64,000 nucleotides of DNA, from IMG/VR virus record IMGVR_UViG_2919367315_000003, positions 30,134 through 94,133 of that record. The stretch is one strand, 5' to 3'. Positions 41,701-57,850 of the stretch are shown one piece after another; position 1 is the stretch's first letter; each line of letters begins with the position of its first letter. The position numbers and the translations under genes are program-made. The DNA comes from a virus (taxonomy: Duplodnaviria > Heunggongvirae > Uroviricota > Caudoviricetes). A model generated the notes under the pieces. It was not told where the DNA came from. It ran no database searches and saw only the letters and a list, made by a program, of their open reading frames with translations.

Positions 41701-41816
41701 ATGAGCTATATGAGAAATACGGTGTTCATTTTGATTTGCTGGATATGTTAATGACCAAAGAAAAAGATAAAGAAGGAAAAACCTATATTCGATGGGGAAG
41801 ACAAGATATTGTGTAA
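38790..41816 (+). CDS. N6-adenine DNA methyltransferase fused to an SNF2/SF2 helicase (DarB-like)
   Basis: GQFFTP (motif X), DLTAGIGNF (I), ILGNPPF (IV); WGQGAGKS, ILDEAD, LMTGT, helicase C-terminal motifs. Confidence 0.85.
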   Translation: MSYQISNIMIPQHKRKEINDKIIHLIDNNLTAKHGITSQIIYNTYTGDGGLHRLSFNDYGNFHLFSEAKKELENGQFFTPHHVCNFIIDCIKPSKHDLIADLTAGIGNFFNFLPNLSNVYANEIDIKAYKVMKYLYPAIHISKDDIRNYHPDISFDLILGNPPFNLKWTVEKDEYLSQLYYCIKAHELLKPAGLLGLIVPCSFLSDNFTDGGMIKELNNRYNFVYQVAMPSDAFKSVGVDNFKTKIMFFQKKSEHIVEENSYHTDFYIAELNSTSSDYIYNKFIQPIISTKEKIKHKLFFEQIHSNNEDKNFSFKVTKYLFDIKRNPKINLNYAKCVDYVNRYYAQIRPNEMKFDEWEQVRITKRKVLSYLKRVLKNQHIIEKDSIKLVKTNYGLKLKGYSHKNKIYLSKFTETKEVSFSDMIVKGEYPFEDQSYKKFFDKKVRAFNMQSKQFKNIELDAKITTFLDNLVIVDYENDEEIRLNPIQKEDTNKILQKQYGFLQWGQGAGKSVSGIANLLYRLKYKNVRNVFIVSTAIAINNTWQSILEDYKISYIRINELSDINKIQQGQIVIITLNILSKYQKFIKKYIKIQSQKVALILDEADNISNPNSKRTKAVLSVFRRVKYKTLMTGTMTRNTITEAATQFELLYNNSINMLSESEYIYKPDKDDKTKLNETKNKLYLKPIPAYHKGYKLFNESHIPEKITVFGVGQHTQDIFNSEVLKRMIDKTIITRTFEEVRGQKIYEIFQNTSRFSAKEKDLYRKAIEEFYSMKHLFKSTGNLRKDRMMEILNQLMLMLKICAVPQAYKEYLGDTPNKFKVILSMLNKWNNEYVAIGVRHIKTVNAYVEAIRDKFPNRPLFVITGDKVNLNKRKEIVNELRKSGNGILLSTQQSLSSSMNIGFVNKVIIPELSWNEATMSQYYFRFVRYNSKNLKEIHFVTYENSIESNLLGLILTKEKLNLFMKNQEIDDDELYEKYGVHFDLLDMLMTKEKDKEGKTYIRWGRQDIV

Positions 41817-41948
41817 AACTGATATTTTACCGGGACTTATAGAGGAATTATATGATAATCTGATATACAAAAATAATTAAACTATTGAATATAATGAAAT
41901 GCCGTGATATAATAAATACATAAGATAAATACATGGGAGGCGGTTATT

Positions 41949-42305
41949 ATGAAAACCATGATAGGACCATCGAATGTTCAGTATTTTCATTATTCAGGAA
42001 AAGTGTGGTTATCTGAAGGGTATAAAGAAAGACAAAGATTTAACGTTGCGGTATTACAAAACAATGAGCTTAAGGTTCTTGGGTATGTACCACAAGGTAA
42101 CCCCGAAGATGCAGTAATAAAAATATTAAAGTCTTATGGATGGTTCGATCACTATATTTCATATCTGTTAGCAGAAGAAGATGAAATAATAATGTGTACT
42201 GTTTGCAACCAGAACTATTATGAAGGCGATGTTAACATAGTTGATTACGAAGATGATATGTGTATTTTGTGCGAAGCAAAATATAAAGAAACAATAAATA
42301 AGTGA
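41949..42305 (+). CDS. Hypothetical protein with C-terminal CxxC...CxxC
   Basis: RBS GGGAGG; CTVC, CILC. Confidence 0.65.
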   Translation: MKTMIGPSNVQYFHYSGKVWLSEGYKERQRFNVAVLQNNELKVLGYVPQGNPEDAVIKILKSYGWFDHYISYLLAEEDEIIMCTVCNQNYYEGDVNIVDYEDDMCILCEAKYKETINK

Positions 42306-42367
42306 GGGGTTTCAGCCCCTCTACTTAAAATACTCATTTTATAAAGAATAGAAGGAGATGAGCTTAA

Positions 42368-42637
42368 ATGTTTACTATTTTGCTAGAAGTAAAGAGGAAT
42401 GATGACCAAAGAAAAACAAACGAATTTTATACTCCAGCAACACCAGAATTTAAACGGTTCCCAAGGACTAAAAAGGGTATCAATAGAGCTATGGAGGAAT
42501 TATTAAAGCTTGTCAATAATAAAAGCTGGGTTGCCGATTATCGTTTTGTGTTTTATCGGGGGAAATACCACCATTCGAAGTCTAATATGAAACCGTTGTT
42601 TGTAATCGGTGCTAACGGTGAGCACTTCTCTATATAA
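42368..42637 (+). CDS. Hypothetical protein
   Basis: RBS AAGGAG; flanked by junction motifs. Confidence 0.65.
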   Translation: MFTILLEVKRNDDQRKTNEFYTPATPEFKRFPRTKKGINRAMEELLKLVNNKSWVADYRFVFYRGKYHHSKSNMKPLFVIGANGEHFSI

Positions 42638-42672
42638 AAGAGTGATTTCATTCGGGCAAAGGAGGAAATGAA

Positions 42673-42867
42673 ATGCTATATGTAAACAAACGTTCAAAAA
42701 TGATTTGTGCAACGATCAAGGAAGTGAAATGTCCTGAAGACATCTTTGGGGTGGGAAAATCCCCTGTTACAGAAGGGATGATTAAATTTGAAATTGACAA
42801 CTTCTTAAAAGAGGATTTCAGAAGAGTAACCACCAAAGAATTCAAAGATAGCTTGAAATCCTTATAA
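42673..42867 (+). CDS. Hypothetical protein
   Basis: RBS AAGGAGG; flanked by junction motifs. Confidence 0.65.
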   Translation: MLYVNKRSKMICATIKEVKCPEDIFGVGKSPVTEGMIKFEIDNFLKEDFRRVTTKEFKDSLKSL

Positions 42868-42905
42868 AATTCTTGTTTTATAAACAAAGATATCAAAAGG
42901 AGAGA

Positions 42906-43140
42906 TTGAAATGAGTATCAAAATCTTGAAGTTAAATACATAAATGTTCCTGCATTCATACAGGAACAGATTAACGAAGAGTTCTGTATGGGATGGAAGA
43001 AATCGGAGAACTCTGACGCTATCCCAGTTAAATTCATTGGCAAAACCCATTACCATGGTATGGTAGATGGGTTTAAGTTGAAGGTCGATAACGGGTATGT
43101 ACACTTTGATTATTTATCAAGTTGCTACAGTTTGAAATAA
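42906..43140 (+). pseudogene. Frameshifted small gene (pseudogene or sequence error)
   Basis: RBS AAAGGAG then TTG-AAA-TGA, while the +1 frame 42910-43140 is open for 76 codons (NEYQNLEVKY...). Confidence 0.4.
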
Positions 43141-43247
43141 GGATTGATGAAATTGTATAATTATTCAACTTTAAAAGTATAGCACTCGCATTTAATGATA
43201 TTTTTATCCATAATACCGCATATTTATAAATAACTTATGATAGGAGA

Positions 43248-43481
43248 ATGAAAATAATGAAGATTGATAAATTGGTGAAACAAATTATTAAGAAACTTGA
43301 TTCTGAAGGATTGCATTATGAAGTGTCAGGCGATCAATATACATTCGTTATCTCTCCTACATGTACAATACATACTAATCATTGCACTATTGATGTATAT
43401 AAAAATCAAATAACCATCAATGAAAAATTAGTAGATGGCCTAGATGAAATGATTGATGAAATATTGGCGGTAGAGCAATAA
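43248..43481 (+). CDS. Hypothetical protein
   Basis: RBS AGGAG; ORF track. Confidence 0.6.
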   Translation: MKIMKIDKLVKQIIKKLDSEGLHYEVSGDQYTFVISPTCTIHTNHCTIDVYKNQITINEKLVDGLDEMIDEILAVEQ

Positions 43482-43566
43482 GGAGGAGATAAGAAGCATA
43501 TGTACAAGGATGGGTATTGCATTATTGAAAACTTAGAGAGTTGCCAAAATAACGGAGGTATAACAA

Positions 43567-43773
43567 ATGACATATATAGATTGTGAATATAAAGGTTCGA
43601 TTGCTAATCAGGCTGTAATGTCCATAACAAGAAAGGAGAATATGTTATATAGAAAATCAATGTGCGATGGAGCTATTAAATACCATAAAGAAAATAATAA
43701 TAATGGACAAGTAAAATTTTTTGAAGACGAAATGAAACTGATCAATAGAAGGCTGAAGTACTTGGAAAATTGA
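43567..43773 (+). CDS. Hypothetical protein
   Basis: RBS GGAGG. Confidence 0.6.
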   Translation: MTYIDCEYKGSIANQAVMSITRKENMLYRKSMCDGAIKYHKENNNNGQVKFFEDEMKLINRRLKYLEN

Positions 43774-43849
43774 TTATAAAATGCTTATTTGATTATGAGT
43801 TAATGCATGATAAAATTAAATCAAAGTAGTTCACAGGAGGTGCTTACAA

Positions 43850-44053
43850 ATGAAAAGTAAGATAATGGCACAATTTTTGGTTGCTGGAGACGTGATAATT
43901 AAGGATAGAAAAAGATACATAATCTCCAATGCAAAGACAATAGGAGATCGCACAAGTATACTTTACAGCGGACTAAAAGATCAAAAGCTACATAGTATTA
44001 AACAGGCTCCAAAAAGTGAATTTTTTACAGTTGTTAACGATGGAAGATTTTAA
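43850..44053 (+). CDS. Hypothetical protein (SH3-like beta pattern)
   Basis: RBS AGGAGG; LVAGDVII motif. Confidence 0.6.
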   Translation: MKSKIMAQFLVAGDVIIKDRKRYIISNAKTIGDRTSILYSGLKDQKLHSIKQAPKSEFFTVVNDGRF

Positions 44054-44147
44054 AAAAGCTATACATTATAGTCTCATTCTAAGCTATAATATATAGCTTT
44101 AGCATTCTTTCAAAGGCAGTCTTTCATAGGGAAATGAGGTGTGTTTC

Positions 44148-44285
44148 ATGGGTCCATTTTATGTTGAATGTTCTGGTTGTGGTATGAAAATTGATTTGCA
44201 TACAGGCAAAGAAAATGAAGATTACACAATTGAAGAACATGATGGAGAAGAATGTTTCTTCTGTAAAGATTGCAATACAAAATAA
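44148..44285 (+). CDS. Small Zn-ribbon protein (45 aa)
   Basis: Translated by hand: CSGC...CKDC; RBS GAGGTG. Confidence 0.55.
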   Translation: MGPFYVECSGCGMKIDLHTGKENEDYTIEEHDGEECFFCKDCNTK

Positions 44286-44435
44286 AATTTCAAAAAATGA
44301 AGGAAAAATATAATAAACCTATCTTCAATTCAAGACTTCTTTTTGTGAAGTCTTTTTTTGTTTTGATAAAACCAGTCTTTTACATAGATTTTACATCATA
44401 TTGAACCATATGTTATAATTAGGAAAAAGGCATAG

Positions 44436-44633
44436 GTGAATTATATGAGATTGAAAACAAGAGATTGGTTTGCTTTGTTGGCGAGTAGTTTATTTCTTGG
44501 ATATGCTATTTATTCTTTTCAAAATCCTAATACTAGTTCGGAGAACGTTGCTAATATAGCAACTACTGTTATGCAAAAATTTACTGGAATTGTTGCGACT
44601 GCGGCAAATGCAATACATATAATAATCAATTAA
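44436..44633 (+). CDS. Small membrane protein
   Basis: N-terminal TM helix; terminator-like sequence follows. Confidence 0.55.
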   Translation: MNYMRLKTRDWFALLASSLFLGYAIYSFQNPNTSSENVANIATTVMQKFTGIVATAANAIHIIIN

Positions 44634-44716
44634 GCAGCCTTTAAAGGCTGTTTTTATTTTGCTTTTTATGATCAGATGATATTATATATTCAAATACGTA
44701 TAAGGGGGATCAGTGC

Positions 44717-45157
44717 TTGCCTACACCTACTCAAAAGAAGTTCAATAAAAGTATGGCTAAGATCGAAAAGAACTCGCGTAAAAATGGTTCTGAAAAGGTA
44801 TACAGTTACATCCAAGATAGGTACATAAGTGATTACTACGATAGAGAACCGAAAGCGAAGACTAGAGTGAAAAAGCTTCAAACATTTAAGTACATGACCA
44901 TTGCCACAATAGCGGTTTTCTTTTTCATTTGTTTTGTGTTTGCCCCATTCAATAGATTTGCTGCGATACCTTTTACAACAATGGTTAGTGCTGTGCCCTT
45001 GTTATTATTAGGGATAATTCATCCCAGTTTAGCATTTATGGACGGTAGGTCAAGAATTACTGTCATTTGGGTCTACGTTTTAATTTTTATAGTATCTTTT
45101 ATTGTTGCTGGTCTTATGCTTGGAGTTGAGGTACCAGCACATAGTGTACAAAATTAA
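44717..45157 (+). CDS. Membrane protein (three TM segments)
   Basis: Basic N-terminus, hydrophobic C-terminus; RBS AAGGGG. Confidence 0.6.
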   Translation: MPTPTQKKFNKSMAKIEKNSRKNGSEKVYSYIQDRYISDYYDREPKAKTRVKKLQTFKYMTIATIAVFFFICFVFAPFNRFAAIPFTTMVSAVPLLLLGIIHPSLAFMDGRSRITVIWVYVLIFIVSFIVAGLMLGVEVPAHSVQN

Positions 45158-45367
45158 CAACATCCTTCTAAGGCTATTCAATTATAATAAAATGTTACTT
45201 TTACTAATAAGAAGCGCTGAGACAATATCTCAAGCGCTTTTTTAATTAGCGACTTATATTTTTTGTGTTTAACAAATAAAAATAATGAAATGTATTGACT
45301 TCATTGAAATGGAATGTTATAGTAAGTCCAAGAAAACATTAAAATAAATTTTAACTGAGGTGAATAC

Positions 45368-45544
45368 ATGACGTTAAGAGAAAGAACGCTTAAGTTAATA
45401 ATAGAAAGAGGAATAAATAAATCATTTATTACTAGTAAATTATCAATAAGTAATTCTTTATTCTCACTATTTATTAACGATAAGCAGCCATTACAAAAGC
45501 CTGAAATAATGAAACTTGAAAAATTGATTGAATCTTATATATAA
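45368..45544 (+). CDS. Small XRE-like HTH protein (58 aa)
   Basis: Translated by hand: MTLRERTLKLIIERGINKSFITSKLSISNSLFSLFIN; RBS GAGGTG; TTGACT promoter upstream. Confidence 0.55.
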   Translation: MTLRERTLKLIIERGINKSFITSKLSISNSLFSLFINDKQPLQKPEIMKLEKLIESYI

Positions 45545-45567
45545 ATGAAAATTGGAGGAGAATAAAT

Positions 45568-46626
45568 ATGGGAGCTTTGCTGAAGATAGATAACTTTGTT
45601 GAGGATAAGAATGTAAGAGATCAATACATAGATAGAACTGAAGTGCTTGAAAAAGTGAAATCCCTTTCTATGTTGCCTGACAAGAAACATATGACTGTTA
45701 GAGCAGTTGCAGATTTTTATGAGGTAGAATACGCCGTAATAGGTAATATGCTTACCAGATACAAAAAAGAGTTTCAAACAGACGGTGTTCATACTTTAAC
45801 AAGTAAGGATGAGGCTTTTAACAAGTTGACAAAAGCCTTGCCCAGCAAGCAATTTGTAGTGAAGTTACTTCCTAAAAGAGCGGTATTGCGAATAGGAATG
45901 CTATTAAGAGACAGCGAGGTAGCAGTCAAGGTAAGAGACTATCTCTTGAAAGTTGAAGAAACATCTACTATAGATCAAAAGAGAGGCGTTTGGACAGATG
46001 CCGATTTGATAACACTTAACGAGATAATGAAAGACGAAACTAATAAGGGGAATAGTAAATGGGGTGCTATTAGAAAGGCAGCCAAAGTCATTAAAAAGAA
46101 TCCTCATGCAATTTATCAGAAGTATAAAAACGTCAATAAGAAACATGGAACATTAGAAAAATATATTGAGGGAAATAATCTGATCTATTTGAATAAGCAA
46201 TCCAAGGAAGCTCAAGAAGAAATATCGTTAGTGACTAAATCAACAGCGCATGAAGAGCAGCAACACAATATAGTAGTAGGAACTTTTCAAACAAAGATGA
46301 ATAAAATGCTTAATGATATGAAAAATATAAGTGATTTGGAATCAACTATCCATGATTTAAAACTAGAAGTCAGAGATCTAAAACATCAATTAGAAATAAA
46401 AGAAATGGAATTATCAGCTAATACTGAAAGCATTACTAAGAAAGATAAGATGATTAGTAAGTACAAGAAAGAAAAGTTAACCTTAGAAGCAAGTATAAAA
46501 GCAATTCGAAAAATAGTTTTAAATGGTGTAAAAGTAAACAGTAGTGAGGTACAAGATACATTAGAATCAGAAGCTTCAGGTCGTAAGTTTACACAGGATA
46601 AGAGTGGACTAATACAACTAAAATAG
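45568..46626 (+). CDS. Phage DNA-binding protein: antirepressor-like N-terminus, Myb/RsfA-like middle, coiled coil
   Basis: TVRAVADFYEV...RIGMLLRDSEVA; WTDADLITL...AAKVIKKNPHAIYQKY; heptad-rich C-terminus. Confidence 0.5.
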   Translation: MGALLKIDNFVEDKNVRDQYIDRTEVLEKVKSLSMLPDKKHMTVRAVADFYEVEYAVIGNMLTRYKKEFQTDGVHTLTSKDEAFNKLTKALPSKQFVVKLLPKRAVLRIGMLLRDSEVAVKVRDYLLKVEETSTIDQKRGVWTDADLITLNEIMKDETNKGNSKWGAIRKAAKVIKKNPHAIYQKYKNVNKKHGTLEKYIEGNNLIYLNKQSKEAQEEISLVTKSTAHEEQQHNIVVGTFQTKMNKMLNDMKNISDLESTIHDLKLEVRDLKHQLEIKEMELSANTESITKKDKMISKYKKEKLTLEASIKAIRKIVLNGVKVNSSEVQDTLESEASGRKFTQDKSGLIQLK

Positions 46627-46811
46627 CTATTGAGAACTGAGTCTGTTAAAAGGCTCAGTTTTTTGATTAGTTTAATAATTAAATATAATGAATATTGATT
46701 ATAAAATAAAAGTGTGGTATAATTACATTATCGAAAGAGCAACAATGTATTGGATCAGGCAACACTGTATTGTAAAACAACGATTTCATTCAGAATAGGA
46801 GAAGGTTATTC

Positions 46812-47072
46812 ATGAACAATTTTGAGCGTATTGAATTTCACAACACACCATTTAATTCGGTGAGAGTTTATCTGTATTTCGATGAAGATAAAGATATTAG
46901 TAGCAAAACCGTTCGGTCAAGTAAAGAATTTAATCTCTTCCAAGCACTTTCTATTTGGGGAGGATACGATAAAGTTGAGTTTGGATTTTATTCGTGGGAA
47001 TTGTCCAAAAGCCTTGTTCCGTATTTTAAAGAGATGTTTGGTCATCGCAATGATAGTGTTTTAAAGATTTGA
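46812..47072 (+). CDS. Hypothetical protein
   Basis: RBS AGGAG; flanked by junction motifs. Confidence 0.65.
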   Translation: MNNFERIEFHNTPFNSVRVYLYFDEDKDISSKTVRSSKEFNLFQALSIWGGYDKVEFGFYSWELSKSLVPYFKEMFGHRNDSVLKI

Positions 47073-47107
47073 TAAAAACAGTATTTCATAAAGAGGTGAG
47101 TTAGCAA

Positions 47108-47401
47108 ATGATTACAAGAAAAGATATTGAGAAATTGCAATCCGTTGTAAATCAAGAAGCTTATACAGTTGGACAAACAAACAATGACCGAACTAGAGCT
47201 GTATTTGATGAAGCTATTGAGAAGCTAATTGCTACAGAGAAAGCATACAACAAACAAAGAAAAACCAAAGAAGTAGAATATACGATAGGTGTCAGACCAA
47301 TTGGTACATACAATGGGAAGGTGACTGTTTGGGAAGACGCAACTGATAAAGAAATTGAAGCGGCTATACTAGATGATTGTGAATACTATATGACTTATTA
47401 G
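47108..47401 (+). CDS. Hypothetical protein
   Basis: RBS GAGGTG. Confidence 0.65.
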   Translation: MITRKDIEKLQSVVNQEAYTVGQTNNDRTRAVFDEAIEKLIATEKAYNKQRKTKEVEYTIGVRPIGTYNGKVTVWEDATDKEIEAAILDDCEYYMTY

Positions 47402-47466
47402 TTTGCTTTATATAAATTGATATGTTGTTAAAAGCAGGATTTTATCAGAAAGAGGAGGGGGAGACC

Positions 47467-47697
47467 ATGAAGGAGCATACAGGCAAGGTTGTAAGATTTT
47501 CTAGTAACAATGGAAATGAGTTTCGAATGGGTGATCTTGCTATATGCATGAATGGAGAGTCTGGACTTTTTCTAGGTCTTAGTGGAGACAATTTTATGCG
47601 TATGTGGTATGAGTCAGGCAAATACAAAGTGATGCCAACACTTAAGCCAGAAATTGAACAACTTTTGTCAGAAGCTCGTTGTAAGTACTTTGAGTAA
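47467..47697 (+). CDS. Hypothetical protein (start moved to ATG 47467)
   Basis: RBS GAGGAGGG; junction motif at 47429 lies upstream. Confidence 0.6.
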   Translation: MKEHTGKVVRFSSNNGNEFRMGDLAICMNGESGLFLGLSGDNFMRMWYESGKYKVMPTLKPEIEQLLSEARCKYFE

Positions 47698-47741
47698 AGC
47701 ACGAATTTATTAAAGCATTTTTATGAGAGAGGAGCTATGTA

Positions 47742-48110: not shown

Positions 48111-48155
48111 GTTTGAAATAAAACAGTTATTTTTCCTGAAAGGAGTGTATGTGGT

Positions 48156-48344: not shown

Positions 48345-48365
48345 CTAAGAATAAATATTGAAAGG

Positions 48366-48656: not shown

Positions 48657-48719
48657 AAATAGGTAGTCCCTACGGGAATAAAAACGGACTTTTATCAATA
48701 CATAAAAAGGGGCAGTAAA

Positions 48720-49105: not shown

Positions 49106-49161
49106 ATGATAGTAAAAGTTGAATTTTACAATGTAAAAAACACATAAGGAGTGGCATATTT

Positions 49162-49644: not shown

Positions 49645-49938
49645 GTGAACAGCATGACTTTACATAAGTGCAAGAATGAATTTTGTTCAGGAAACATTGT
49701 ATCTGATTATAAAGAAGCTGAATATTGTCTTAAATGCTATATGGATATGTTGAAAATTCTTCCCTTGTTTCACATACCAGTTGGAATTATGCCATATAAA
49801 TCGGCAGAACAGATGAGAAATAACCCAAGTCAATGTAAGATGAAATTTTGTAAGAATAAGGCGCGGTTGAGAGGTAGATGTTTTAAGTGTTATATCGAGT
49901 TTACCAAAAAGCAAGAATCTGAGATGAAAAAGCTATAA
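49645..49938 (+). CDS. Cys-rich Zn-binding protein
   Basis: Two C-x4-C...CxxC units; RBS AGAGG. Confidence 0.55.
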   Translation: MNSMTLHKCKNEFCSGNIVSDYKEAEYCLKCYMDMLKILPLFHIPVGIMPYKSAEQMRNNPSQCKMKFCKNKARLRGRCFKCYIEFTKKQESEMKKL

Positions 49939-50092
49939 AAGATTAATTTGACCAAGATCGCTTAGGCGGTCTTTTTTTGTTTTTACTAAGACAAATAAAT
50001 ATAATGAAATAATTAAAAACATATATACAAATATAATCACATAATATATAATGAAGATATAGAAAAGAACTATAAATAAAGAGGTGACATTC

Positions 50093-50245
50093 ATGCACAA
50101 GGTAACTGTTTTTGAAAAGGTGCTGGACAAATTGGTGGCGAATACATATGACTTTAATGATAAAATTGAAATGGCTAAGTTTGTGGCTGCTTGCGAGGAA
50201 GACGGTGTGATGGTGGTCATGCACGGCCTAAACCAAACAGCATAG
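50093..50245 (+). CDS. Small hypothetical protein (50 aa)
   Basis: Translated by hand; RBS GAGGTG. Confidence 0.55.
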   Translation: MHKVTVFEKVLDKLVANTYDFNDKIEMAKFVAACEEDGVMVVMHGLNQTA

Positions 50246-50279
50246 TAAAACTATATTTGCTCTGAAAGGATGTTTAAAA

Positions 50280-50510
50280 ATGAAAATCAATATTCATGAA
50301 CTATTCCCACGGTTAGAAGAACAATACACCAGCGAAGGTGTTGAAAATATCAAAGAAGTCGCTAAAATAATTGAATTTATGACTAAAAATTTATCAGCCG
50401 ATGAAATAAATAATTTTCTTACTATAATGGACGGTGGTAATTATAGTATGGTTTATGATATGTTTCATTATCTTGAAAGACAGAAATCTAAAACAGTAGA
50501 TGAACTATAG
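50280..50510 (+). CDS. Hypothetical protein
   Basis: Flanked by direct repeat ATAGTAAAACTATATTT. Confidence 0.65.
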   Translation: MKINIHELFPRLEEQYTSEGVENIKEVAKIIEFMTKNLSADEINNFLTIMDGGNYSMVYDMFHYLERQKSKTVDEL

Positions 50511-50541
50511 TAAAACTATATTTTTATTGGGAGTTGAAAAA

Positions 50542-50718: not shown

Positions 50719-50760
50719 ATAAAATGATCCTTTTACTTAAATATAGATGGAGGTAATCGA

Positions 50761-51191: not shown

Positions 51192-51218
51192 ATTGAATAT
51201 TTTACGTAGAAATGAGGA

Positions 51219-51437
51219 TTGACGAATATGGATATCACTCGGGAATTAAAAGATCAGATTCGAAGCAGCTATATTGATATTAATGATATTGCACCCCATG
51301 AAGCGCAAATAGCAGCCATTATTAACTTGATTCCAGATAGGATAAAGACTCTGGCAGAAGAGTGGGGATGGAATGACACAGAAGTAAGGGATTTTATTTA
51401 TGTTTTAATTAGAGATAATAAAGAAAAGTTTCAGTAA
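51219..51437 (+). CDS. Hypothetical protein, paralog A
   Basis: Shares NLIP.RIK.LA.EWGWN.TEVRD.IYVLIRDNKE with the next gene. Confidence 0.7.
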   Translation: MTNMDITRELKDQIRSSYIDINDIAPHEAQIAAIINLIPDRIKTLAEEWGWNDTEVRDFIYVLIRDNKEKFQ

Positions 51438-51467
51438 ATAGATTATTTCATGAGGAGATAATAGCTT

Positions 51468-51677
51468 ATGGACGATATTCAAGAAATGCGAGACCAGATT
51501 TTAAGCAGTTTTAACGACATTTACGATAAAGAACCAACAGAAGAACAAGTAGCATTTATTTTTAACTTAATTCCTCAGCGCATTAAGTTGTTAGCCGATG
51601 AATGGGGATGGAATGAGACAGAAGTTAGGGATTATATCTATGTCTTAATTAGAGACAATAAAGAAATGCCCCAATAA
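51468..51677 (+). CDS. Hypothetical protein, paralog B
   Basis: Tandem duplicate of 51219-51437. Confidence 0.7.
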   Translation: MDDIQEMRDQILSSFNDIYDKEPTEEQVAFIFNLIPQRIKLLADEWGWNETEVRDYIYVLIRDNKEMPQ

Positions 51678-51707
51678 GAATATTTTTTATAAGGAGATGT
51701 TTGAACA

Positions 51708-51896
51708 ATGACGAAGCTTAATCTTAGCTCTACAAAAGCAACATTAAACAATGGAACTACTGAAGAAGTATGGAAACAAATTAACGATGAAGGCTGGAAA
51801 CTAATCTCTTCTCCTGATAGCAGATCAATTGGAAGTAAAATGAACAATAACAGTTTTGAAAAATACGTGGAGCGATTCAAGCAGAATTTAAGATAA
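51708..51896 (+). CDS. Hypothetical protein
   Basis: RBS AAGGAG; the stop codon is part of a junction motif. Confidence 0.65.
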   Translation: MTKLNLSSTKATLNNGTTEEVWKQINDEGWKLISSPDSRSIGSKMNNNSFEKYVERFKQNLR

Positions 51897-51935
51897 AAGG
51901 ATTCTTTTATGAGAATCAAAGGGGAGATGAGATAA

Positions 51936-52133
51936 ATGTCTATGTATTCACAAGTCAAGTTTAGTCTTAGAATGACAGAGAATAAGGTACTAAAAATTAA
52001 TAATGAATTTTCCAAACTGCCTAGATGTGGACATGATGATTTTATTACATTAAACGGCGATATTATTAATGCAAAAATAACATTGAACTATGGTCTTAAA
52101 ACATTGATTGAGTTTCTGAAGGAACTTGAGTAG
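51936..52133 (+). CDS. Hypothetical protein
   Basis: RBS GGGGAG. Confidence 0.6.
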   Translation: MSMYSQVKFSLRMTENKVLKINNEFSKLPRCGHDDFITLNGDIINAKITLNYGLKTLIEFLKELE

Positions 52134-52136
52134 CAA

Positions 52137-52397
52137 ATGATGTGCGATGAACTCACTTTCGTTGGATACTTTTCCTCAGAAGAAAGAAACATTGAACGAA
52201 CTAATCTATACCTTTTCAAGAATCGCTTATATTTGATCAAAAGCGAAAGCATTGATGGTTATGGGTACAGTGATACACAATATAAGATTATGGATTTACA
52301 TAATTCAACGATAGTTTATTCCCAAAGTGAGTTTGAAGAAGAAAAAGACAATATGTTTTTCGTTGAAAAATATATAGAAGATTCTAAAATACGATGA
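52137..52397 (+). CDS. Hypothetical protein
   Basis: Coupled ORF. Confidence 0.6.
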   Translation: MMCDELTFVGYFSSEERNIERTNLYLFKNRLYLIKSESIDGYGYSDTQYKIMDLHNSTIVYSQSEFEEEKDNMFFVEKYIEDSKIR

Positions 52398-52398
52398 A

Positions 52399-52761
52399 AT
52401 GAATAGGAGTAATCAGATGAGTAAATTTGATTTATGGGAACACGGAATTGATTCATGGACAGGGTATTTTATCATTGAGGCATTGAGTACAGTAGGTACA
52501 AACAGTCCATTATATCAAAGAGGGTACGATCCTTCATCTATGGAAGCAAAATTAATTATTAACGGTGTTGAGCTGCCTTTGGCTAAAACATTTGAGCATA
52601 TTGGTCAACAGTTCGAAGACATGGCAAAGAAGAGGGCAGAAGAAATATTGGAAGAAAAAATAGATATTGAGCTAATGGATTCGCTTCGTTCTGTATCTAG
52701 GTTAACTAATGACTTTGAAGAAGAACTGAAATTAAAAATAAATAAAATGGTCAATATATAA
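52399..52761 (+). CDS. Hypothetical protein
   Basis: RBS AGGAG for an internal ATG (MSKFDLWE). Confidence 0.6.
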   Translation: MNRSNQMSKFDLWEHGIDSWTGYFIIEALSTVGTNSPLYQRGYDPSSMEAKLIINGVELPLAKTFEHIGQQFEDMAKKRAEEILEEKIDIELMDSLRSVSRLTNDFEEELKLKINKMVNI

Positions 52762-52805
52762 TTCGGTTTAACTCATTATTCTAGGTTAAAAGGTGGAAGA
52801 TAAAG

Positions 52806-53030
52806 ATGATTGTGAATACAGGAAGAGTGTTAAAAGATGGTACATTAGTTGAATTAGGAGATAAATTACAAGGTAGCCAAACTCGTGAGGTTGTAGTTTT
52901 GTGGGACGAGGATAATGCTAATTATGGTGTTGAAGTTATTGGGAGATCGGATTTTTGGTGGGAATTAGATTATTACCTTAGTGCATGGAGCGATTTAAAG
53001 AAGACTGGCAATATTAATAAGAGACTGTAA
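52806..53030 (+). CDS. YopX-like C-terminal-domain protein (tentative)
   Basis: DGT.VELGDKL...VVLWDE pattern. Confidence 0.35.
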   Translation: MIVNTGRVLKDGTLVELGDKLQGSQTREVVVLWDEDNANYGVEVIGRSDFWWELDYYLSAWSDLKKTGNINKRL

Positions 53031-53074
53031 AAGAAGTATTTGATAACAAAAAAGAAGCGACCAAAAGTCGCAAC

Positions 53075-53329
53075 TTAATCAAAGTATTTATTAGCAAAAA
53101 TAATAGCTATACCAATCGCTAAGAAAATAAAAGCAAATGGAATAGACACAGTGTAGTCATTTAATGCTTGAACTAAATCTTTATTAAGCGAATTGCTAAT
53201 CTGAGAACCCATAAATTCTCGTGTATCTGGAGCAACCCTTAGCAGATGTTTGATGAAGTAAGCATAAATAGCATAAACGAAGGATAATGCGCTTAATCCA
53301 TAACCCAAATTTTTGATTTTTACTACCAT
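53075..53329 (-). CDS. Two-TM membrane protein in opposite orientation
   Basis: RBS AAAGG; hydrophobic termini; hairpin GCGAC-caaaa-GTCGC at its 3' end. Confidence 0.6.
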   Translation of the reverse strand: MVVKIKNLGYGLSALSFVYAIYAYFIKHLLRVAPDTREFMGSQISNSLNKDLVQALNDYTVSIPFAFIFLAIGIAIIFANKYFD

Positions 53330-53430
53330 TCTTATTTTCCTTTCTCAATTTAAGATTAATTTAATTATACTAATCTATTTGTATGATATGCAAATACTGG
53401 AATGTAATCAAGTAAGAAGGAGCGAAGAAT

Positions 53431-53826
53431 ATGAAGACTAGGGTTTTTACATGTTCTAACGGGACAGAGTTAATTGTTAAACATCGAAAATCAGCAGTGA
53501 TACTTGAAATGAATCAAAATCAAATAAATAATAAATATAATGTTACATATAATTTTGAACTTAGGGATTTCGTAGAGTTGTATAACTACATTAAAATGAT
53601 TGCGAATGAAGCTTGGACTAATTTATCTCCCAAGGAAGCTAACAGTTTAGGATCGGACTATTACGAATATTATGACAAAGAACTTGACACTAATGGCTAT
53701 CTTCGTATCGGTAAAAACACAATTTTTATAGATAGACCAGCATTAAATGGACTCAAACTTTATCTCTTCAATAAGAAGAAAATGGAGTCATTTATTTTTG
53801 ACTTTGAAAAGTTCGTTGTTTCCTAA
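53431..53826 (+). CDS. Hypothetical protein
   Basis: RBS AAGGAG. Confidence 0.65.
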   Translation: MKTRVFTCSNGTELIVKHRKSAVILEMNQNQINNKYNVTYNFELRDFVELYNYIKMIANEAWTNLSPKEANSLGSDYYEYYDKELDTNGYLRIGKNTIFIDRPALNGLKLYLFNKKKMESFIFDFEKFVVS

Positions 53827-53895
53827 CATTAAGAGTGGTTCTTATAAAATAAGTCTTTTAATAAATATAATTCATATAACAACGGAGGAATAACT

Positions 53896-54066
53896 ATGTT
53901 TACTGTGATCAATACAGAAACCAAACAATACCTTAGAGCAGATTGGGAAGAACATCGCGGTCAACTATATACTCATGACATTGATCTAGCTGCAAAGTTC
54001 GAAAGTTGGCACGATGCTGAAGATATTATAGAAGTAACAGAACAAGTAGTACCTTTGTTCGATTAA
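53896..54066 (+). CDS. Small hypothetical protein (56 aa)
   Basis: Translated by hand; RBS GGAGG. Confidence 0.6.
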   Translation: MFTVINTETKQYLRADWEEHRGQLYTHDIDLAAKFESWHDAEDIIEVTEQVVPLFD

Positions 54067-54076
54067 AAATAAAGGA

Positions 54077-54262
54077 GTGTTTAAAATGGATACATATATG
54101 ATCGTCGTAGACGGAAAAGTAAAAGAAGAAATCGAGACCGCTGGACGCTCCAAAGAAGCAATGAGTTATGTGTTAATTGATCGATTCTATCATTGGAAAG
54201 GTTTATCTGGTAATGTCAACATCTATAGCTCTTTGACAGGGAGTGAATATCGCTATGTTTAA
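54077..54262 (+). CDS. Hypothetical protein
   Basis: RBS AAGGAG. Confidence 0.6.
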   Translation: MFKMDTYMIVVDGKVKEEIETAGRSKEAMSYVLIDRFYHWKGLSGNVNIYSSLTGSEYRYV

Positions 54263-54521
54263 AGCTGGGGCATTAAAAGATAATAAGCTGTATGTTAGGA
54301 ATAATCAGGGCAAGTGGATTGAATTACATGAAGCAGCGAAACAATATGAACAGCACAGAAATTTGAAGCATGCATAATAAAGATAGTCATAATGTGGTCT
54401 TTTTAATAAACAAAAATAATGAATATATTGAATGACTAAAAGAGATGTGTTATGATTTATTTAACGATAGGTAAACATTGTAAAGGAACTAGTAACATAG
54501 TATTGTAGAGTTTGAAGAATA

Positions 54522-54704
54522 TTGCGCAGAGGTGATAACAGAATGAGTCAGGATAAAAAGAAGATATTCGTATACGACGAAGCAACTAAAAAGGAAATGG
54601 AAGTAGATGTTTCACGTATTGTCGCCTTTCAAGCTAGGACTATTAAAAGGAAGTCATTGTTGGTGGCTTTCATGGATGATGGCAATCAATACATTATGTT
54701 GTAG
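54522..54704 (+). CDS. Hypothetical protein (likely start MSQDKK)
   Basis: RBS GAGGTG; junction motif follows the stop. Confidence 0.6.
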   Translation: MRRGDNRMSQDKKKIFVYDEATKKEMEVDVSRIVAFQARTIKRKSLLVAFMDDGNQYIML

Positions 54705-54729
54705 TAAAAGGTTTATTTTATAAAGAAAA

Positions 54730-55035
54730 GTGGTGAACGATGTGTCGGAGATGACTTTTAGTTTAGAAAGATATGTAATAAATGATATTTACGATAAAGA
54801 AACTATAATAAAGTATGTCATGACGATGACTGAACTTGAAGAAATAGATTTGTTACTACAACAGAATGAAAGGTACGTATTAATCAGCAAGTCACATGAG
54901 ATCGTAACTTTATCAGATCTGCCGACTGAATATTTGGACACATTACTTGAAAAGACATCTAAAGACCCCAAGAACGCTATGGTTTTAACTGAGATCCATC
55001 GTATTATCAACGCAAGACAAGATTCTATCAAATAA
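54730..55035 (+). CDS. Hypothetical protein
   Basis: ORF between junction motifs. Confidence 0.6.
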   Translation: MVNDVSEMTFSLERYVINDIYDKETIIKYVMTMTELEEIDLLLQQNERYVLISKSHEIVTLSDLPTEYLDTLLEKTSKDPKNAMVLTEIHRIINARQDSIK

Positions 55036-55059
55036 CTATTTTAGGGGGAAATAAGCCTA

Positions 55060-55248
55060 ATGAATCTGATTAATGAACAAATTGAATTGCTAATTAAATT
55101 AAACCAATCAGAAACAAAGAAGAACCAATCTCTTCAAAATATCTACGGTGACGAAATAATTGAAGGCTTGAAGGCTCTTGAATTAATTGAATTTGAACAA
55201 GTATTGCGCCTAACTGAGAAAGGAAAGTCTATTGTCAATGAAGCTTAA
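55060..55248 (+). CDS. Small winged-helix-like protein
   Basis: LKALELIE...LTEKGK motif. Confidence 0.5.
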   Translation: MNLINEQIELLIKLNQSETKKNQSLQNIYGDEIIEGLKALELIEFEQVLRLTEKGKSIVNEA

Positions 55249-55262
55249 AAGGGAGGATAAAT

Positions 55263-55550
55263 ATGTATACGGTCATAGTGGGATTCGATAATATTACAGA
55301 AGTGTATCAAGTTGAAAAATATAATGATGAGATTAAAAATGCAATCGAATATCTGAATACATATGGGGTCGATTCAATCGAGTTTGTATGTGAGGGTGAA
55401 ATTGTCGAGAATGTTTATCAATTATATTCAATTGAATATATGATTAATAGGTTTGAGAAAAGTGATTTCTTTGAAAATTATTGTGACTTAAGTGAAAAAC
55501 CATTGATGGAAAATTACAAAGAGTTACTAAGGAAAATGGCTGCAAGATAA
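55263..55550 (+). CDS. Hypothetical protein
   Basis: RBS GGGAGG. Confidence 0.65.
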   Translation: MYTVIVGFDNITEVYQVEKYNDEIKNAIEYLNTYGVDSIEFVCEGEIVENVYQLYSIEYMINRFEKSDFFENYCDLSEKPLMENYKELLRKMAAR

Positions 55551-55727
55551 TTTGTCTTACATAAAAAAAAGAAGAGGGAATATGGGTGTTGTGATCTTTA
55601 TGATGAATCTCAATCGCTTCTAGAGTGGCAAGATCCATTTCAATTAGGAACTACAAACTTTTTTCATTGAGCGTTAGCCTCCAAGGGTATATTAAAGTAT
55701 TTGTGTCGATAGAGAAGAGGAAAAGAA

Positions 55728-55955
55728 ATGGGAGATGTTTTTATGACAAGAGAAGATATAATAAATGATCGCATTAAGAATATCACACAGGAGGTAGAAT
55801 CAATTGATAAGAAAATAAAAGCAGAGGCTAAGAAGTTAATTGAATCCGTAACTCCAAAGAGCCTTGAAAAAATTGTTGAACTGAAATCAGAGAGAGAAAA
55901 ACTTGTTAAAGCACAATATGAACTATATGTAATTATCGGGACGAGCATAAATTGA
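55728..55955 (+). CDS. Coiled-coil hypothetical protein
   Basis: Heptad pattern; RBS. Confidence 0.6.
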   Translation: MGDVFMTREDIINDRIKNITQEVESIDKKIKAEAKKLIESVTPKSLEKIVELKSEREKLVKAQYELYVIIGTSIN

Positions 55956-55959
55956 TCAA

Positions 55960-56337
55960 ATGACTGTTTTATCACAATTTATAGAAGGAAGGTGTTTAGA
56001 TATGACAAAACATTTATGGGAAGTTGAGCATCCTTATTATTGCAATTTGAGCAATTATCGTACAAAAGGAGACGAAGGAGGTTACGAATATAGTTCGTTT
56101 GAAGAGTTTTTGAAAGAATGGGATGATGCCGATATGGATTACCATTTGCTCTTTAGATGGGATTGGAAAGTGTATGACGAAGGTAGCGATGAATTACATA
56201 TGTTTTGGATGCTTCAGCGGAGAGGCGATTATCAATACTGTACAGTTAAAGTAAACAAAGAGGATGAGGATAAAGTAAAAGAGTTCTTGCAGCCAAGATG
56301 GGAGTATATGAAGACATTATGGGAACCTTTTATTTAA
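55960..56337 (+). CDS. Hypothetical phage protein (likely start MTKHLWE)
   Basis: HLWEVEHPYYC...LLFRWDW conserved-looking phage motif. Confidence 0.6.
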   Translation: MTVLSQFIEGRCLDMTKHLWEVEHPYYCNLSNYRTKGDEGGYEYSSFEEFLKEWDDADMDYHLLFRWDWKVYDEGSDELHMFWMLQRRGDYQYCTVKVNKEDEDKVKEFLQPRWEYMKTLWEPFI

Positions 56338-56378
56338 ATCTCATGATGAAGAAGTGATTCATGTGAAGGAGCATTGCC

Positions 56379-56741
56379 ATGACAAATAAGATTAACCTCT
56401 ACGTAGACGACCTCAGAGACTGTCCAGATGGCTTTGTGGTCGCTCGTACATATTATGAAGCAATACATATATTTGAGACCAGAAGTGTCGGCATTCTTAC
56501 ATTAGACCATGATTTAGGCGAAGATGTTGATGGCAAAGAGTTGCCTAACGGATATGACTTGGTGAAGTACTTCTGTGAACATGGATTGAGGGCTAATAAT
56601 ATCTATTTACATACTGACAACCCAGTGGGACGCAAGAATATGTATGAGACTTTGTTAGCTGCTCAGCGAAGAGGATTTATCGATGAGGATATTGAAATTT
56701 ACCATTATCCTATAACCGTGAACAAGTATTCAGGAAATTGA
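56379..56741 (+). CDS. Cyclic-phosphate-processing receiver-domain protein
   Basis: LYVDDLRDCP...ILTLDHDLG...GYD...HTDNPVGR. Confidence 0.7.
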   Translation: MTNKINLYVDDLRDCPDGFVVARTYYEAIHIFETRSVGILTLDHDLGEDVDGKELPNGYDLVKYFCEHGLRANNIYLHTDNPVGRKNMYETLLAAQRRGFIDEDIEIYHYPITVNKYSGN

Positions 56742-56781
56742 TGAAAAACATTCTTTATCAAGACTGATGGGAGTGAATTAA

Positions 56782-57414
56782 ATGCTAAACATGGGATTAG
56801 CTGAAAACGGAGTAGATTCGTTTAAAGCTGCTTTTTTAACAATGAAAAAAATACAAGTGCTAGAAGACGGCATAGTACATAATTTAAAAGATGCTGTAAT
56901 GTCTCTAAATCATGGAATCGAAATACTATTTAAGCTGCTTTTGAAAAGTTATGATGAATATCTTATATTTGCAGACATTGATAAATATATGACGGCAAGA
57001 AAGACAATGATAGCAAAAGGTTTATCTAATGTCTTTGAGGCAAACCCACTTCTTAAAACTGTTACATTAAATGAGGGAATTAGACGAGCCAAGTATTTAT
57101 GTGACTATGAGATATCGGAAGATTTCGAAACAGTAGTTCAGTACTTAAACAAAATAAGAAATCAATTTATGCATTATGAAATAAGTCTCTCTGGCGAAGA
57201 GGTTGAGGAGCTTCTCTTACAATTACGAATAGGTTATGAGTTGACTTATGAATTTTTTGTTGAATACAATGAAGATCTTAAGGATTTGTTTGAGGATGCA
57301 AGATATGAAATTACCATAGATGATTACACTGACGAAATTGCTGAGATGCATCGGAGTTTAATGGAGGAAGAATTAGCTGAGCAGAGATACTTAGTAGAAA
57401 AATACGGGATTTAG
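56782..57414 (+). CDS. Putative HEPN-domain protein
   Basis: All-helical; AVMSLNHGIEILFK N-terminal motif and RNQFMH (RxxxxH). Confidence 0.55.
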   Translation: MLNMGLAENGVDSFKAAFLTMKKIQVLEDGIVHNLKDAVMSLNHGIEILFKLLLKSYDEYLIFADIDKYMTARKTMIAKGLSNVFEANPLLKTVTLNEGIRRAKYLCDYEISEDFETVVQYLNKIRNQFMHYEISLSGEEVEELLLQLRIGYELTYEFFVEYNEDLKDLFEDARYEITIDDYTDEIAEMHRSLMEEELAEQRYLVEKYGI

Positions 57415-57416
57415 AT

Positions 57417-57719
57417 ATGGTAAAAGGCATGTTTTATCCAATAACAAAGGGAGTTGGGCATGTGAATATTAAAACGATCTCTAAAGAAATTCGCCAGAAT
57501 CTTTATAATGTTGAATTGAGCGAAGAGGAAGTCGATGCTCTTTATCGTTACATCAATCTTGGTGATTATGGTATTGAATTAACTGAAGGAACAAATATCT
57601 TAGAGAAGGATACATTATGGTTAATAGTGGCTGAGCTTAACAACAAAAAGGATTTCCCCAATATACTTTATATCAATATCTTAGCCCATCTTAAGAAGCT
57701 TTTATATCCAATCGAATAG
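57417..57719 (+). CDS. Hypothetical protein
   Basis: ORF track; RBS AAGGGAG for an internal GTG. Confidence 0.55.
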   Translation: MVKGMFYPITKGVGHVNIKTISKEIRQNLYNVELSEEEVDALYRYINLGDYGIELTEGTNILEKDTLWLIVAELNNKKDFPNILYINILAHLKKLLYPIE

Positions 57720-57850
57720 TAGCTATTTCTAATGATCAAATGCAAGTTTGATCAGTCCAATATAATGTAAAGAACAACTTAGACATAATGATGCGCGATT
57801 GGTAACCCTCTCTTGATTATTATACGCAAATTGGAAGGGAGAAAAATAGA

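Follow-up and report, generated by a model that had tools for sequence, protein, structure and literature searches.

Short palindromes with position-specific centers as candidate exchange joints in the accessory region of a provirus

We analyzed a window of 64,000 nucleotides (bases 30134-94133 of the 158,133-bp IMG/VR provirus IMGVR_UViG_2919367315_000003), in which a short palindrome, TAAAA-N6-TTTTA, recurs between the genes of the accessory (early) region. Homology with close relatives broke at the edges of this palindrome, and the six-base center (N6) of a copy, different at each site of a genome, was found again at the corresponding place in the relatives even where both neighboring genes had been replaced. 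On balance, the copies are probably fixed recombination joints that split the accessory region into exchangeable slots. That they serve as exchange joints of some kind is quite likely, and a dedicated tyrosine recombinase may perform the exchange, a point on which we are more guarded. An earlier note, made from the letters of the window, had proposed an integron-like system driven by a recombinase. Its recombination-site interpretation stood as far as the tyrosine-recombinase core geometry and the bounding of gene cassettes by the sites are concerned, the latter from the breakpoints in relatives, but the integron-like mode did not.

Results

A strict inverted repeat at gene junctions

The window contains 18 perfect copies of TAAAA-N6-TTTTA, while dinucleotide-preserving shuffles gave 1.09 +/- 1.05 and none reached 18, which bears out the enrichment claimed by the earlier note with the check that it had suggested. 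The whole record holds 57 perfect copies; the same arms with spacers of 0-5 and 7-12 nt gave 0-4 copies each, and among all 5-N-5 inverted repeats, surveyed de novo, TAAAA-N6-TTTTA ranked top (57 versus 2.9 expected from 5-mer frequencies). The aligned copies yielded the dyad consensus R-TAAAA-B-N4-V-TTTTA-Y. The base composition of N6, with the first and last center positions included, is reverse-complement symmetric and free of strand asymmetry. Beyond the consensus, there was no information upstream, and downstream only weak purine enrichment on the way to the ribosome-binding site. By a crude gene call, 51 of the 57 copies (about 90%) are intergenic, so that the placement of all copies at gene junctions holds for most but not for every one (the copy at 3272, for example, lies inside the YomM-like gene). 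The TAA of the motif is the stop codon of the upstream gene in 11 copies and the next start codon stands mostly 13-35 nt 3' of the motif; copies occur at convergent gene ends too and are thus not tied to a downstream gene. Between 22544 and 41814 of the window there are no perfect copies.

Perfect copies in the whole record (n=57) are about as numerous as one-mismatch copies (n=64), of which other spacers yield 37-56 by chance, so that the motif comes close to being all-or-none. One-mismatch copies in excess of chance alter the second half-site base (TCAAA, TTTGA, TTTCA), and compensatory arm changes, sought among the variants of the whole record, were not seen. Folded as RNA, the motif hairpins reach only -0.1 to -3.8 kcal/mol and no copy was called in a terminator scan, in line with the earlier view that the arms are too weak for terminators. 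All 13 perfect copies listed in that note were recovered at their positions; its list omitted the copy at 57421, which falls in its range, and the one at 58546 lies just outside. The one-mismatch class was real as well, but we counted 11 intergenic members in the region rather than eight, mostly with TCAAA or TTTGA/TTTCA half-sites. The 8-bp-arm variant at 57733 was confirmed as TGATCAAA-N6-TTTGATCA, with the same half-site variant on each arm.

Homology with relatives breaks at the sites

We compared the phage of the window (G000) with the whole genomes of four close relatives (G001-G004), picked through their YopQ-like protein (98, 95, 93 and 64% identity). Each relative carries 50-61 copies of the motif. 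Any two of the five genomes have 33-39 identical N6 centers in common, against a chance expectation below one, and the shared centers are colinear, with zero order inversions in ten genome pairs. Flanks of same-N6 pairs were aligned locally with gaps and classed as homologous above the 99th percentile obtained with non-matching pairs of sites. Among 357 such pairs, both 80-nt flanks were homologous in 108, one in 139 and neither in 110; one or both flanks were thus unrelated in 249/357. Site pairs defined by flank homology alone had N6 97-100% identical, compared to about 82% for the flanks; with both flanks homologous, the value for N6 was 99%. The spacer is therefore strictly 6 nt and differs among copies, as had been noted, but it is not unconserved, being kept position by position across relatives. 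In pairs with one homologous flank, identity fell to the background of about 30% within 1-3 bases of the motif edge. The center TACTCA (42326) has four unrelated left neighbors and five different right neighbors across the five genomes.

The ends of BLAST blocks pointed to the same places. Of the distinct block ends in the early region, 22% are no more than 5 bp from a perfect site, compared to 1.6% for random positions, 6.2% for gene boundaries and 6.7% for random intergenic bases; left ends fall at motif offset -1/0 and right ends at +16 to +20. Counted over junctions and relatives, the ratio of breaks to continuous alignments was 81:19 at perfect-motif junctions, 38:12 at one-mismatch junctions and 79:154 at motif-less junctions. 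Perfect-motif junctions were breakpoints far more often than motif-less ones (odds ratio 8.3, p = 1e-15), also when the latter were length-matched by taking those of at least 30 bp (odds ratio 5.8, p = 3e-9). The alignment with relatives that the earlier note had put forward as a check thus favored recombination sites, with homology breaking right at the edges of the motif. Where two consecutive centers were the same in both genomes, the interval between them held unrelated content in 47 comparisons and partly related content in 144. Phages phi3Ts and BUCT082 have 21-22 centers in common with SPbeta, in order, and the junction test between SPbeta and these two went in the same direction (odds ratio 3.0, p = 0.005). 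We looked for centers shared between genera and found none.

No center is duplicated, in either orientation, within any of nine genomes, where 10.5 duplicates are expected by simulation if the nine genomes are independent and about 3 with one genome per lineage. None of the 170 distinct centers of these genomes is palindromic, compared to 4.2 expected from position-specific composition (Poisson p ~0.016). Uniqueness of centers and avoidance of palindromes are what identical-center, orientation-sensitive recombination needs.

The sites of the window are as follows, without strand, together with starts and ends of BLAST blocks against G001-G004 that fall near them.

2822..2837, perfect site, N6 GGATAG; 15 nt past the stop of the YomM-like gene, late operon; N6 in 4/4 relatives
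3272..3287, perfect match inside the YomM-like gene, probably non-functional; intragenic; N6 in 0/4 relatives
22529..22544, perfect site, N6 TTACTG; 3' end of the HU-like gene; N6 in 3 relatives
41814..41829, perfect site, N6 CTGATA; TAA is the stop codon of the methylase-helicase gene; N6 in 4/4 relatives, only the right flank homologous
42326..42341, perfect site, N6 TACTCA; N6 in 4/4 relatives, flanks unrelated in 3
42635..42650, one-mismatch site, right arm TTTCA; intergenic
42865..42880, perfect site, N6 TTCTTG; N6 in 4/4 relatives, both flanks unrelated in 4/4
43777..43792, one-mismatch site, TTTGA; intergenic
44367..44382, perfect site, N6 CCAGTC; block starts G002 44369, G004 44366; flanked by a terminator-like hairpin (44332-44354) and a promoter-like site (44390-44419)
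44641..44656, one-mismatch site, TTAAA; overlaps a terminator-like hairpin
45188..45203, perfect site, N6 TGTTAC; block start G003 45187
46773..46788, one-mismatch site, TTTCA; intergenic
47073..47088, one-mismatch site, TTTCA; intergenic
47429..47444, perfect site, N6 GCAGGA; block start G001 47424
48119..48134, one-mismatch site, last base T; intergenic; block end G001 48123, block start G002 48118
48679..48694, perfect site, N6 ACGGAC; block start G003 48678
49113..49128, perfect site, N6 GTTGAA; block starts G001, G003, G004 49112-49113; left flanks unrelated
49936..49951, one-mismatch site, TTTGA; followed by a terminator-like hairpin; block starts G002 49936, G003 49934
50242..50258, partial copy of site 50511; 4 upstream bases, left arm, N6 CTATAT and TT; left end of an inserted one-gene cassette
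50511..50526, perfect site, N6 CTATAT; N6 in 4/4 relatives; block end G002 50527
50720..50735, perfect site, N6 TGATCC; right end of the CTATAT-TGATCC interval
51894..51909, perfect site, N6 GGATTC; TAA is the stop codon of 51708-51896; block start G003 51892
53028..53043, one-mismatch site, TTTGA; left of the minus-strand gene 53075-53329; block starts G002, G003, G004 53028-53030
53845..53860, perfect site, N6 TAAGTC; block start G001 53844, block end G004 53855
54437..54452, one-mismatch site, TGTTA, weaker candidate; intergenic
54705..54720, perfect site, N6 GGTTTA; block ends G001, G003, G004 54724-54730; right flanks unrelated
55028..55043, one-mismatch site, TCAAA; gene end
55956..55971, one-mismatch site, TCAAA; intergenic; block start G001 55954
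57421..57436, perfect site, N6 GGCATG; N6 in G002 and G004, both flanks unrelated
57733..57754, variant site TGATCAAA-N6-TTTGATCA, TCAAA half-site on both arms; long block starts G001 57735, G004 57738
58546..58561, perfect site, N6 TATAAT; N6 in 4/4 relatives; block starts G002 58545, G003 58542; adjoins a bidirectional terminator-like hairpin

The interval between centers CTATAT and TGATCC measures 193 bp in the window against 304 bp (G002) and 243 bp (G003), and its contents are unrelated. In G001 (87049-87082), two perfect copies stand 2 bp apart and the second has a ribosome-binding site in its center; this doublet is either an empty slot or a chance match.

Insertion and duplication through the sites are at most rare

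A 17-bp direct repeat stands on either side of the gene at 50280-50510, with copies at 50242 and 50507; it is made up of four upstream bases, the left arm, the center CTATAT and two T. The repeat had been reported in the earlier note; it is real, and it is the sole feature that resembles an insertion footprint. A single complete site stands at this place in G001, G003 and G004, which lack the gene, and G002 has the same insertion. G000 also has an extra cassette between centers GTTCAA and TCTTCA, where G001 and G002 each have one site. A homologous cassette behind a different center was encountered as only one real case among the genomes compared. We searched for further duplications of an arm plus N6 up to 4 kb apart and obtained only chance-level 11-mers; the 50242/50507 pair alone was above chance. 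The tandem paralogs at 51219 and 51468 (51219-51677; 69-72 aa) are 67% identical and separated by a 30-bp gap with no palindrome between them, so their duplication did not involve the sites, and the minus-strand open reading frame (ORF) at 53075-53329 has a one-mismatch site on one side only. Neither feature lends the cassette system the support that the earlier note had drawn from it. With a single footprint, paralogs without a site and an inverted gene with a site on one side, insertion or duplication via the sites is at most rare, and replacement within a slot is the common pattern.

Proposed addressed exchange of cassettes

Each of the proposed joints consists of two invariant inverted arms (RTAAAA) and an asymmetric 6-bp center; within one genome no two joints have the same center, and related phages carry the same center at matching joints. 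If two such genomes came together in a cell, as phage and prophage or as co-infecting phages, exchange at two joints with matching centers would replace the DNA between them, and the outcome would be unrelated units of ribosome-binding site, ORF and stop codon in the same slot. Joints of the same genome could not recombine with one another because no two centers match and none is palindromic; gene order would thereby be kept and deletions and inversions avoided. This is the anatomy of a tyrosine-recombinase core, with short inverted binding arms and a 6-bp overlap that is checked during strand exchange, and for this reason the YopP-like or the YomM-like recombinase encoded in the window would most likely be the catalyst. 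That a recombinase acts on the sites and requires identical centers is what we infer from the sequences.

Core sites of this kind have inverted arms around a 6-8-bp overlap, and R-TAAAA/TTTTA-Y stands around exactly 6 bp. Recombining partners share the overlap, which the identical N6 at corresponding joints of the five genomes would provide. Invariant arms, distinct centers conserved by position and a 16-mer kept when both neighbors are replaced are the expected signature of recombination that requires both arms and center; a binding site alone fails to explain these three features together. Since the two centers that enclose a cassette are not the same, replacement slot by slot between genomes is favored over excision of circles. 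The integrase tolerant of non-matching overlaps that the earlier note had invoked does not agree with an N6 conserved at each position and unique within each genome. With less assurance, we suggest that SPbeta-like phages might hold a natural counterpart of recombinase-mediated cassette exchange (RMCE), with about 50 mutually incompatible sites of identical arms and unique 6-bp overlaps, on which a phage tyrosine recombinase would make swaps slot by slot, without long homology and without scrambling the order.

It has long been asked how phages trade unrelated genes precisely at gene boundaries. The usual accounts of phage mosaicism invoke either rare illegitimate recombination with later selection or recombination at short, conserved sequences on the boundaries. 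The boundary sequence described here is explicit, strict and short, and its center behaves as a positional address while both neighbors change. The element is also present in SPbeta (34 copies) and phi3T, tractable Bacillus subtilis phages with yomM and yopP of unknown function. If the proposed exchange is true, it would account for how early accessory genes turn over in a large group of phages, give a function to one conserved orphan recombinase of the family, and offer a ready-made multi-site set of orthogonal recombination targets. Anti-defense genes would be an obvious candidate class for the cassettes; the cassette genes here have no assigned function, and their PHROG matches are absent or to families of unknown function.

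Candidate recombinases

The three proteins of tyrosine-recombinase fold that the earlier note had read at 2852, 26016 and 63576 proved to be real by Pfam, alignment to XerD and PDB matches:

26016..27089, plus strand, YopP-like tyrosine recombinase, candidate enzyme; Pfam Phage_integrase 72.8 bits; 29% identity to SPbeta YopP
2852..3853, minus strand, YomM-like tyrosine recombinase, candidate enzyme, late operon; Pfam match; R, K, H, H, Y conserved
63576..64000, plus strand, MrpR/YopR-like repressor with recombinase fold, running off the window (325 aa in the genome); Pfam MrpR_N_CB; PDB YopR/MrpR chains at E 1e-22

In the alignment to XerD, the YopP-like protein has the R, K, HxxR, H and Y residues complete. 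The YomM-like protein is 58-62% identical to its counterparts in SPbeta (58%), BUCT082 and Perkons, among the best-conserved proteins of the group across genera. Its gene belongs to the late operon and the protein would therefore be made when many genome copies are present. The array starts 15 kb from one recombinase gene and 39 kb from the other, and neither gene has an adjacent primary site. Both were found throughout the SPbeta, E3, Perkons, PBC2/Tsamsa and 949 groups and neither in the motif-less PMBT24, a phylogenetic profile that is suggestive but not decisive, since phages 949 and c-st (see below) keep it from being clean. In a Staphylococcus SPbeta-like phage and in Lactococcus 949, the YomM gene lies directly upstream of the tape-measure gene.

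By analogy with SPbeta, the MrpR-like protein is probably not the binder of the motif. Chromatin affinity purification sequencing (ChAP-seq) of SPbeta MrpR gave ten peaks, all ascribed to SPBRE (PMC10516654). SPBRE was derived de novo from the upstream regions of ten MrpR target genes as AAAWAATATGTATAT, with the core ATACA-N7-TGTAT at six targets. In SPbeta this core is at 64141, 68709, 68773, 76199, 83411 and 129208, upstream of yonP, yonX (twice), aimR, yopV and yosX, with an A/T-rich, conserved spacer. The geometry is like that of a recombinase core, and MrpR is a catalytically dead repressor of recombinase fold. The core is absent from the genome of the window, so its MrpR-like protein must use another operator. 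The MrpR precedent shows, by analogy, that a recombinase-fold protein of this family can recognize 5-bp inverted arms, which softens the objection from short arms raised below.

Several observations weigh against the proposed exchange by a phage recombinase. The arms in core sites of Cre, Flp, Xer and lambda-type recombinases measure 9-13 bp, and here only 5-6 bp per arm are conserved and informative. The HxxR box of YomM reads H-(I/L)-F-K, with the second catalytic Arg changed to Lys, in 5/5 aligned proteins (the phage of the window, G002, SPbeta, BUCT082 and Perkons), and the YopP-like proteins are only about 29% identical between phages whose arms are identical. Lactococcus 949 has both recombinases yet little motif enrichment (7 versus 3 in the control), and Clostridium c-st is enriched (31 versus 7) without a YomM match at E <= 1e-10. 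Shifts in divergence at sites inside continuous alignments were not significantly above those at other gene junctions (p = 0.14). Motif-bearing junctions are mainly in accessory regions, a partial confound of the junction test, and the four relatives are non-independent samples. Ordinary homologous recombination is sufficient where long homology exists, since in the laboratory hybrids Hyb1-3 (phi3Ts x SPbeta) all informative crossovers fell within 1.4-18-kb tracts identical in both parents. The crossovers in these hybrids neither support nor refute the use of the sites.

The identical tracts of phi3Ts and SPbeta themselves begin or end at palindromes; an example is the 1404-bp tract around the mtbP methyltransferase gene, which has sites bounding both sides.

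Alternative explanations

The palindrome could be the site of another dimeric phage protein, such as the HU-like YonN homologue or an Xre/helix-turn-helix regulator, and become a joint passively, as microhomology for general or single-strand-annealing recombination in the manner of PeSL (promoter-early stem-loop) cassettes. We regard this as unlikely, though it is the alternative that we take most seriously. A 5-N6-5 dyad suits a helix-turn-helix dimer such as CRP, the sites stand 13-35 nt ahead of start codons, and an HU-like gene is conserved next to yonO in SPbeta (YonN), Perkons, D-1873 and the phage of the window. SPbeta encodes a Sak4-like annealing protein, the laboratory hybrids used homologous recombination, and PeSLs are a documented precedent (PMC2839356). 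Such a passive joint leaves unexplained why an N6 that the protein would not contact is 99% conserved when the flanks are at about 82%, and why the centers avoid repeats and palindromes; the sites also have no tie to promoter-like or terminator-like signals. A match of 16-18 bases is at or under the usual lower limit for annealing recombinases. A signal at the RNA level, in the form of a hairpin between cistrons that serves processing, stability or the control of translation, would fit sites that are transcribed within operons just upstream of ribosome-binding sites. It is very improbable given the weak hairpin energies, a variation that is sequence-specific and lacks compensatory changes, a composition that is reverse-complement symmetric, and copies between convergent genes and beside terminators, and it does not explain the conservation of N6, which would be the loop, position by position.

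Two other explanations concern the array as a whole. The motif may be purely an operator of the stoperator type that silences transcription in the lysogen, its link with breakpoints coming merely from its location at gene ends. The many intergenic copies across the early region, the precedent of stoperators in cluster A mycobacteriophages and the presence of an MrpR-like master repressor speak for it. We nonetheless find an operator improbable: motif junctions break far more often than motif-less ones of similar length, and the 110 pairs with N6 kept and both flanks replaced have no explanation. Operators are usually graded in degeneracy, and this motif is all-or-none. In SPbeta, which has 34 palindromes, the MrpR peaks are all at SPBRE (PMC10516654). 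The integron-like scheme, in which one-site cassettes are excised as circles and inserted at any site by an integrase tolerant of the overlap, would account for the cassette at 50280-50510 within its 17-bp repeat of arm and N6, missing from three relatives, and for the extra cassette of G000 between GTTCAA and TCTTCA. We judge it hardly more credible than the operator, if not slightly less so, as the two sites around a cassette differ in center, homologous cassettes keep their addresses across genomes with one cassette only behind a different center, and there are no more footprints above chance. The tandem paralogs have no site between them, and an attI-like primary site and a cassette promoter are absent.

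Further candidates for the function of the motif were tried and rejected. An MrpR operator was dismissed as SPBRE is unrelated to the palindrome and MrpR peaks at SPBRE only. The YonO polymerase initiates at one late promoter, upstream of yonK (PMC5467207); the motif was rejected as a YonO promoter, as YonO starts one late operon and the sites are mostly in the early region. The region has 80 promoter-like sites compared to 91 expected and hence no enrichment, there was no -35/-10 information around the aligned motif copies, and good promoter-like or terminator-like signals adjoin only a few copies. An intrinsic terminator was discarded since the stem is all A-T with marginal energies and no copy appeared in the terminator scan, and an RNA hairpin since the energies are weak and compensatory changes absent. 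A ComK-type A4-N5-T4 box was rejected because an N5 spacer gives 0 copies.

Comparison with known systems

The closest parallel in phages is the PeSL cassettes of T4-type phages (Arbiol et al. 2010, PMC2839356; PMC4122927), in which short repeated intergenic motifs also surround small non-essential genes in hyperplastic regions, and here as there the ends of indels and replacements between close relatives fall at the motif. PeSLs differ in being functional promoter-plus-terminator units of about 50-70 bp, all alike, which act through homologous recombination and give mini-circles, whereas the element described here has 16-18 bp, is neither promoter- nor terminator-like and has a position-unique center kept between phages. 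The pdif sites that bound the dif modules of Acinetobacter plasmids and are recombined by XerC/XerD (PMC6449649) likewise occur as many copies of a core site with inverted arms and a 6-bp center in one replicon, and site-bounded accessory modules differ between related replicons in both cases. However, pdif sites are 28 bp long with 11-bp non-identical XerC/XerD arms, alternate in orientation, rely on the host Xer proteins and bound modules that move between plasmids and positions; the arms here are identical and 5-6 bp long, the centers form an ordered set of addresses, and the element belongs to a phage.

Integrons resemble the array in several respects: each promoterless cassette has a site at its 3' end, the terminal boxes of the site are inverted and conserved, a tyrosine recombinase is encoded, and the small genes lined up in the array have no known function. 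Their attC sites are imperfect palindromes of 57-141 bp (R''/L''-L'/R' boxes), recombined by IntI as folded single strands, with excision of circles and entry at attI. In the window attI, IntI and a Pc promoter are absent, the element has 16-18 bp and the cassettes stay in their slots. RMCE with heterospecific lox or FRT sites, an engineered system, has the same logic of identical arms and incompatible spacers, in which only sites of like spacer recombine, giving clean replacement with orientation kept. Its arms measure 13 bp and its spacer 8 bp, and it uses two or three types of site; a genome of the present kind would have about 55 natural types, with a candidate enzyme. The element lacks defining features of the PeSL, pdif, integron and lox/FRT systems, and the principle in common is that of gene modules bounded by sites.

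Two repeated operators also invite comparison. SPBRE comes from the same phage family and is a repeated intergenic inverted repeat with a binder of tyrosine-recombinase fold, but it has the sequence AAAWAATATGTATAT, about 10 copies in SPbeta at promoters, and a spacer conserved between copies. Cluster A stoperators are asymmetric 13-14-mers oriented with transcription and bound by the immunity repressor. Like the motif, they are a short site that recurs dozens of times in narrow gaps between genes, frequently at stop codons; a variable center and an association with breakpoints are not known for them.

The phage and its relatives

The window encodes a YonO-type RNA polymerase, 51% identical to SPbeta YonO, with an HU-like gene adjoining, and its YopQ-like and MrpR/YopR-like proteins stand in SPbeta order. 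As YonO-, YomM-, YopP-, YopQ- and MrpR-like proteins are all encoded, the source is an SPbeta-like temperate phage, of another genus than SPbeta. A megablast of the region versus phage and plasmid collections gave no match, nor did the YopQ-like protein versus species-representative genomes; in the latter, the nearest YomM homologues are from Paenibacillus (78%) and Robertmurraya (72%).

SPbeta itself has 34 perfect copies of the motif, about 90% of them intergenic, compared to 0-4 for other spacers. Copies in other phages were counted together with a backwards-read control motif:

BUCT082, 37 copies, control 0
phi3Ts, 30 copies, control 2
Perkons, 17 copies, control 2
Geobacillus E3, 30 copies, control 7
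Mammaliicoccus phi36, 28 copies, control 1
Bacillus PBC2, 23 copies, control 1
Clostridium c-st, 31 copies, control 7
Staphylococcus SPbeta-like, 17 copies, control 8
Lactococcus 949, 7 copies, control 3
Enterocloster PMBT24 (a YonO phage), 0 copies, control 6

Perkons has in addition 10 TGAAA-N6-TTTCA copies compared to 1.6 expected, a lineage-specific half-site variant; the same half-site position tolerates change in the phage of the window. A literature search and a full-text search with the motif string, which did not extend to the 1999 SPbeta genome paper, turned up no description of the motif, and the string matched only in an unrelated archaeal paper. The GenBank record of SPbeta annotates stem-loops and two other palindromes but not the TAAAA-N6-TTTTA sites.

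To the right of the divergent yonO region, window positions 26016-38757 form a plasmid-like block with the YopP-like recombinase, a RecD2-type helicase, DnaD/helix-turn-helix-like and ParB-like proteins, and large ORFs of unknown function. Next to it, the methylase-helicase gene (38790-41816, plus strand), a fusion of an N6-methylase and a DEAD-helicase of 1008 aa, has homologues of 44-74% identity in other viral contigs. Some of these contigs have no palindromes in 23 kb and have unrelated neighbors, and relatives reached through this gene were of no help in the comparison; the methylase-helicase gene itself seems to move between elements.

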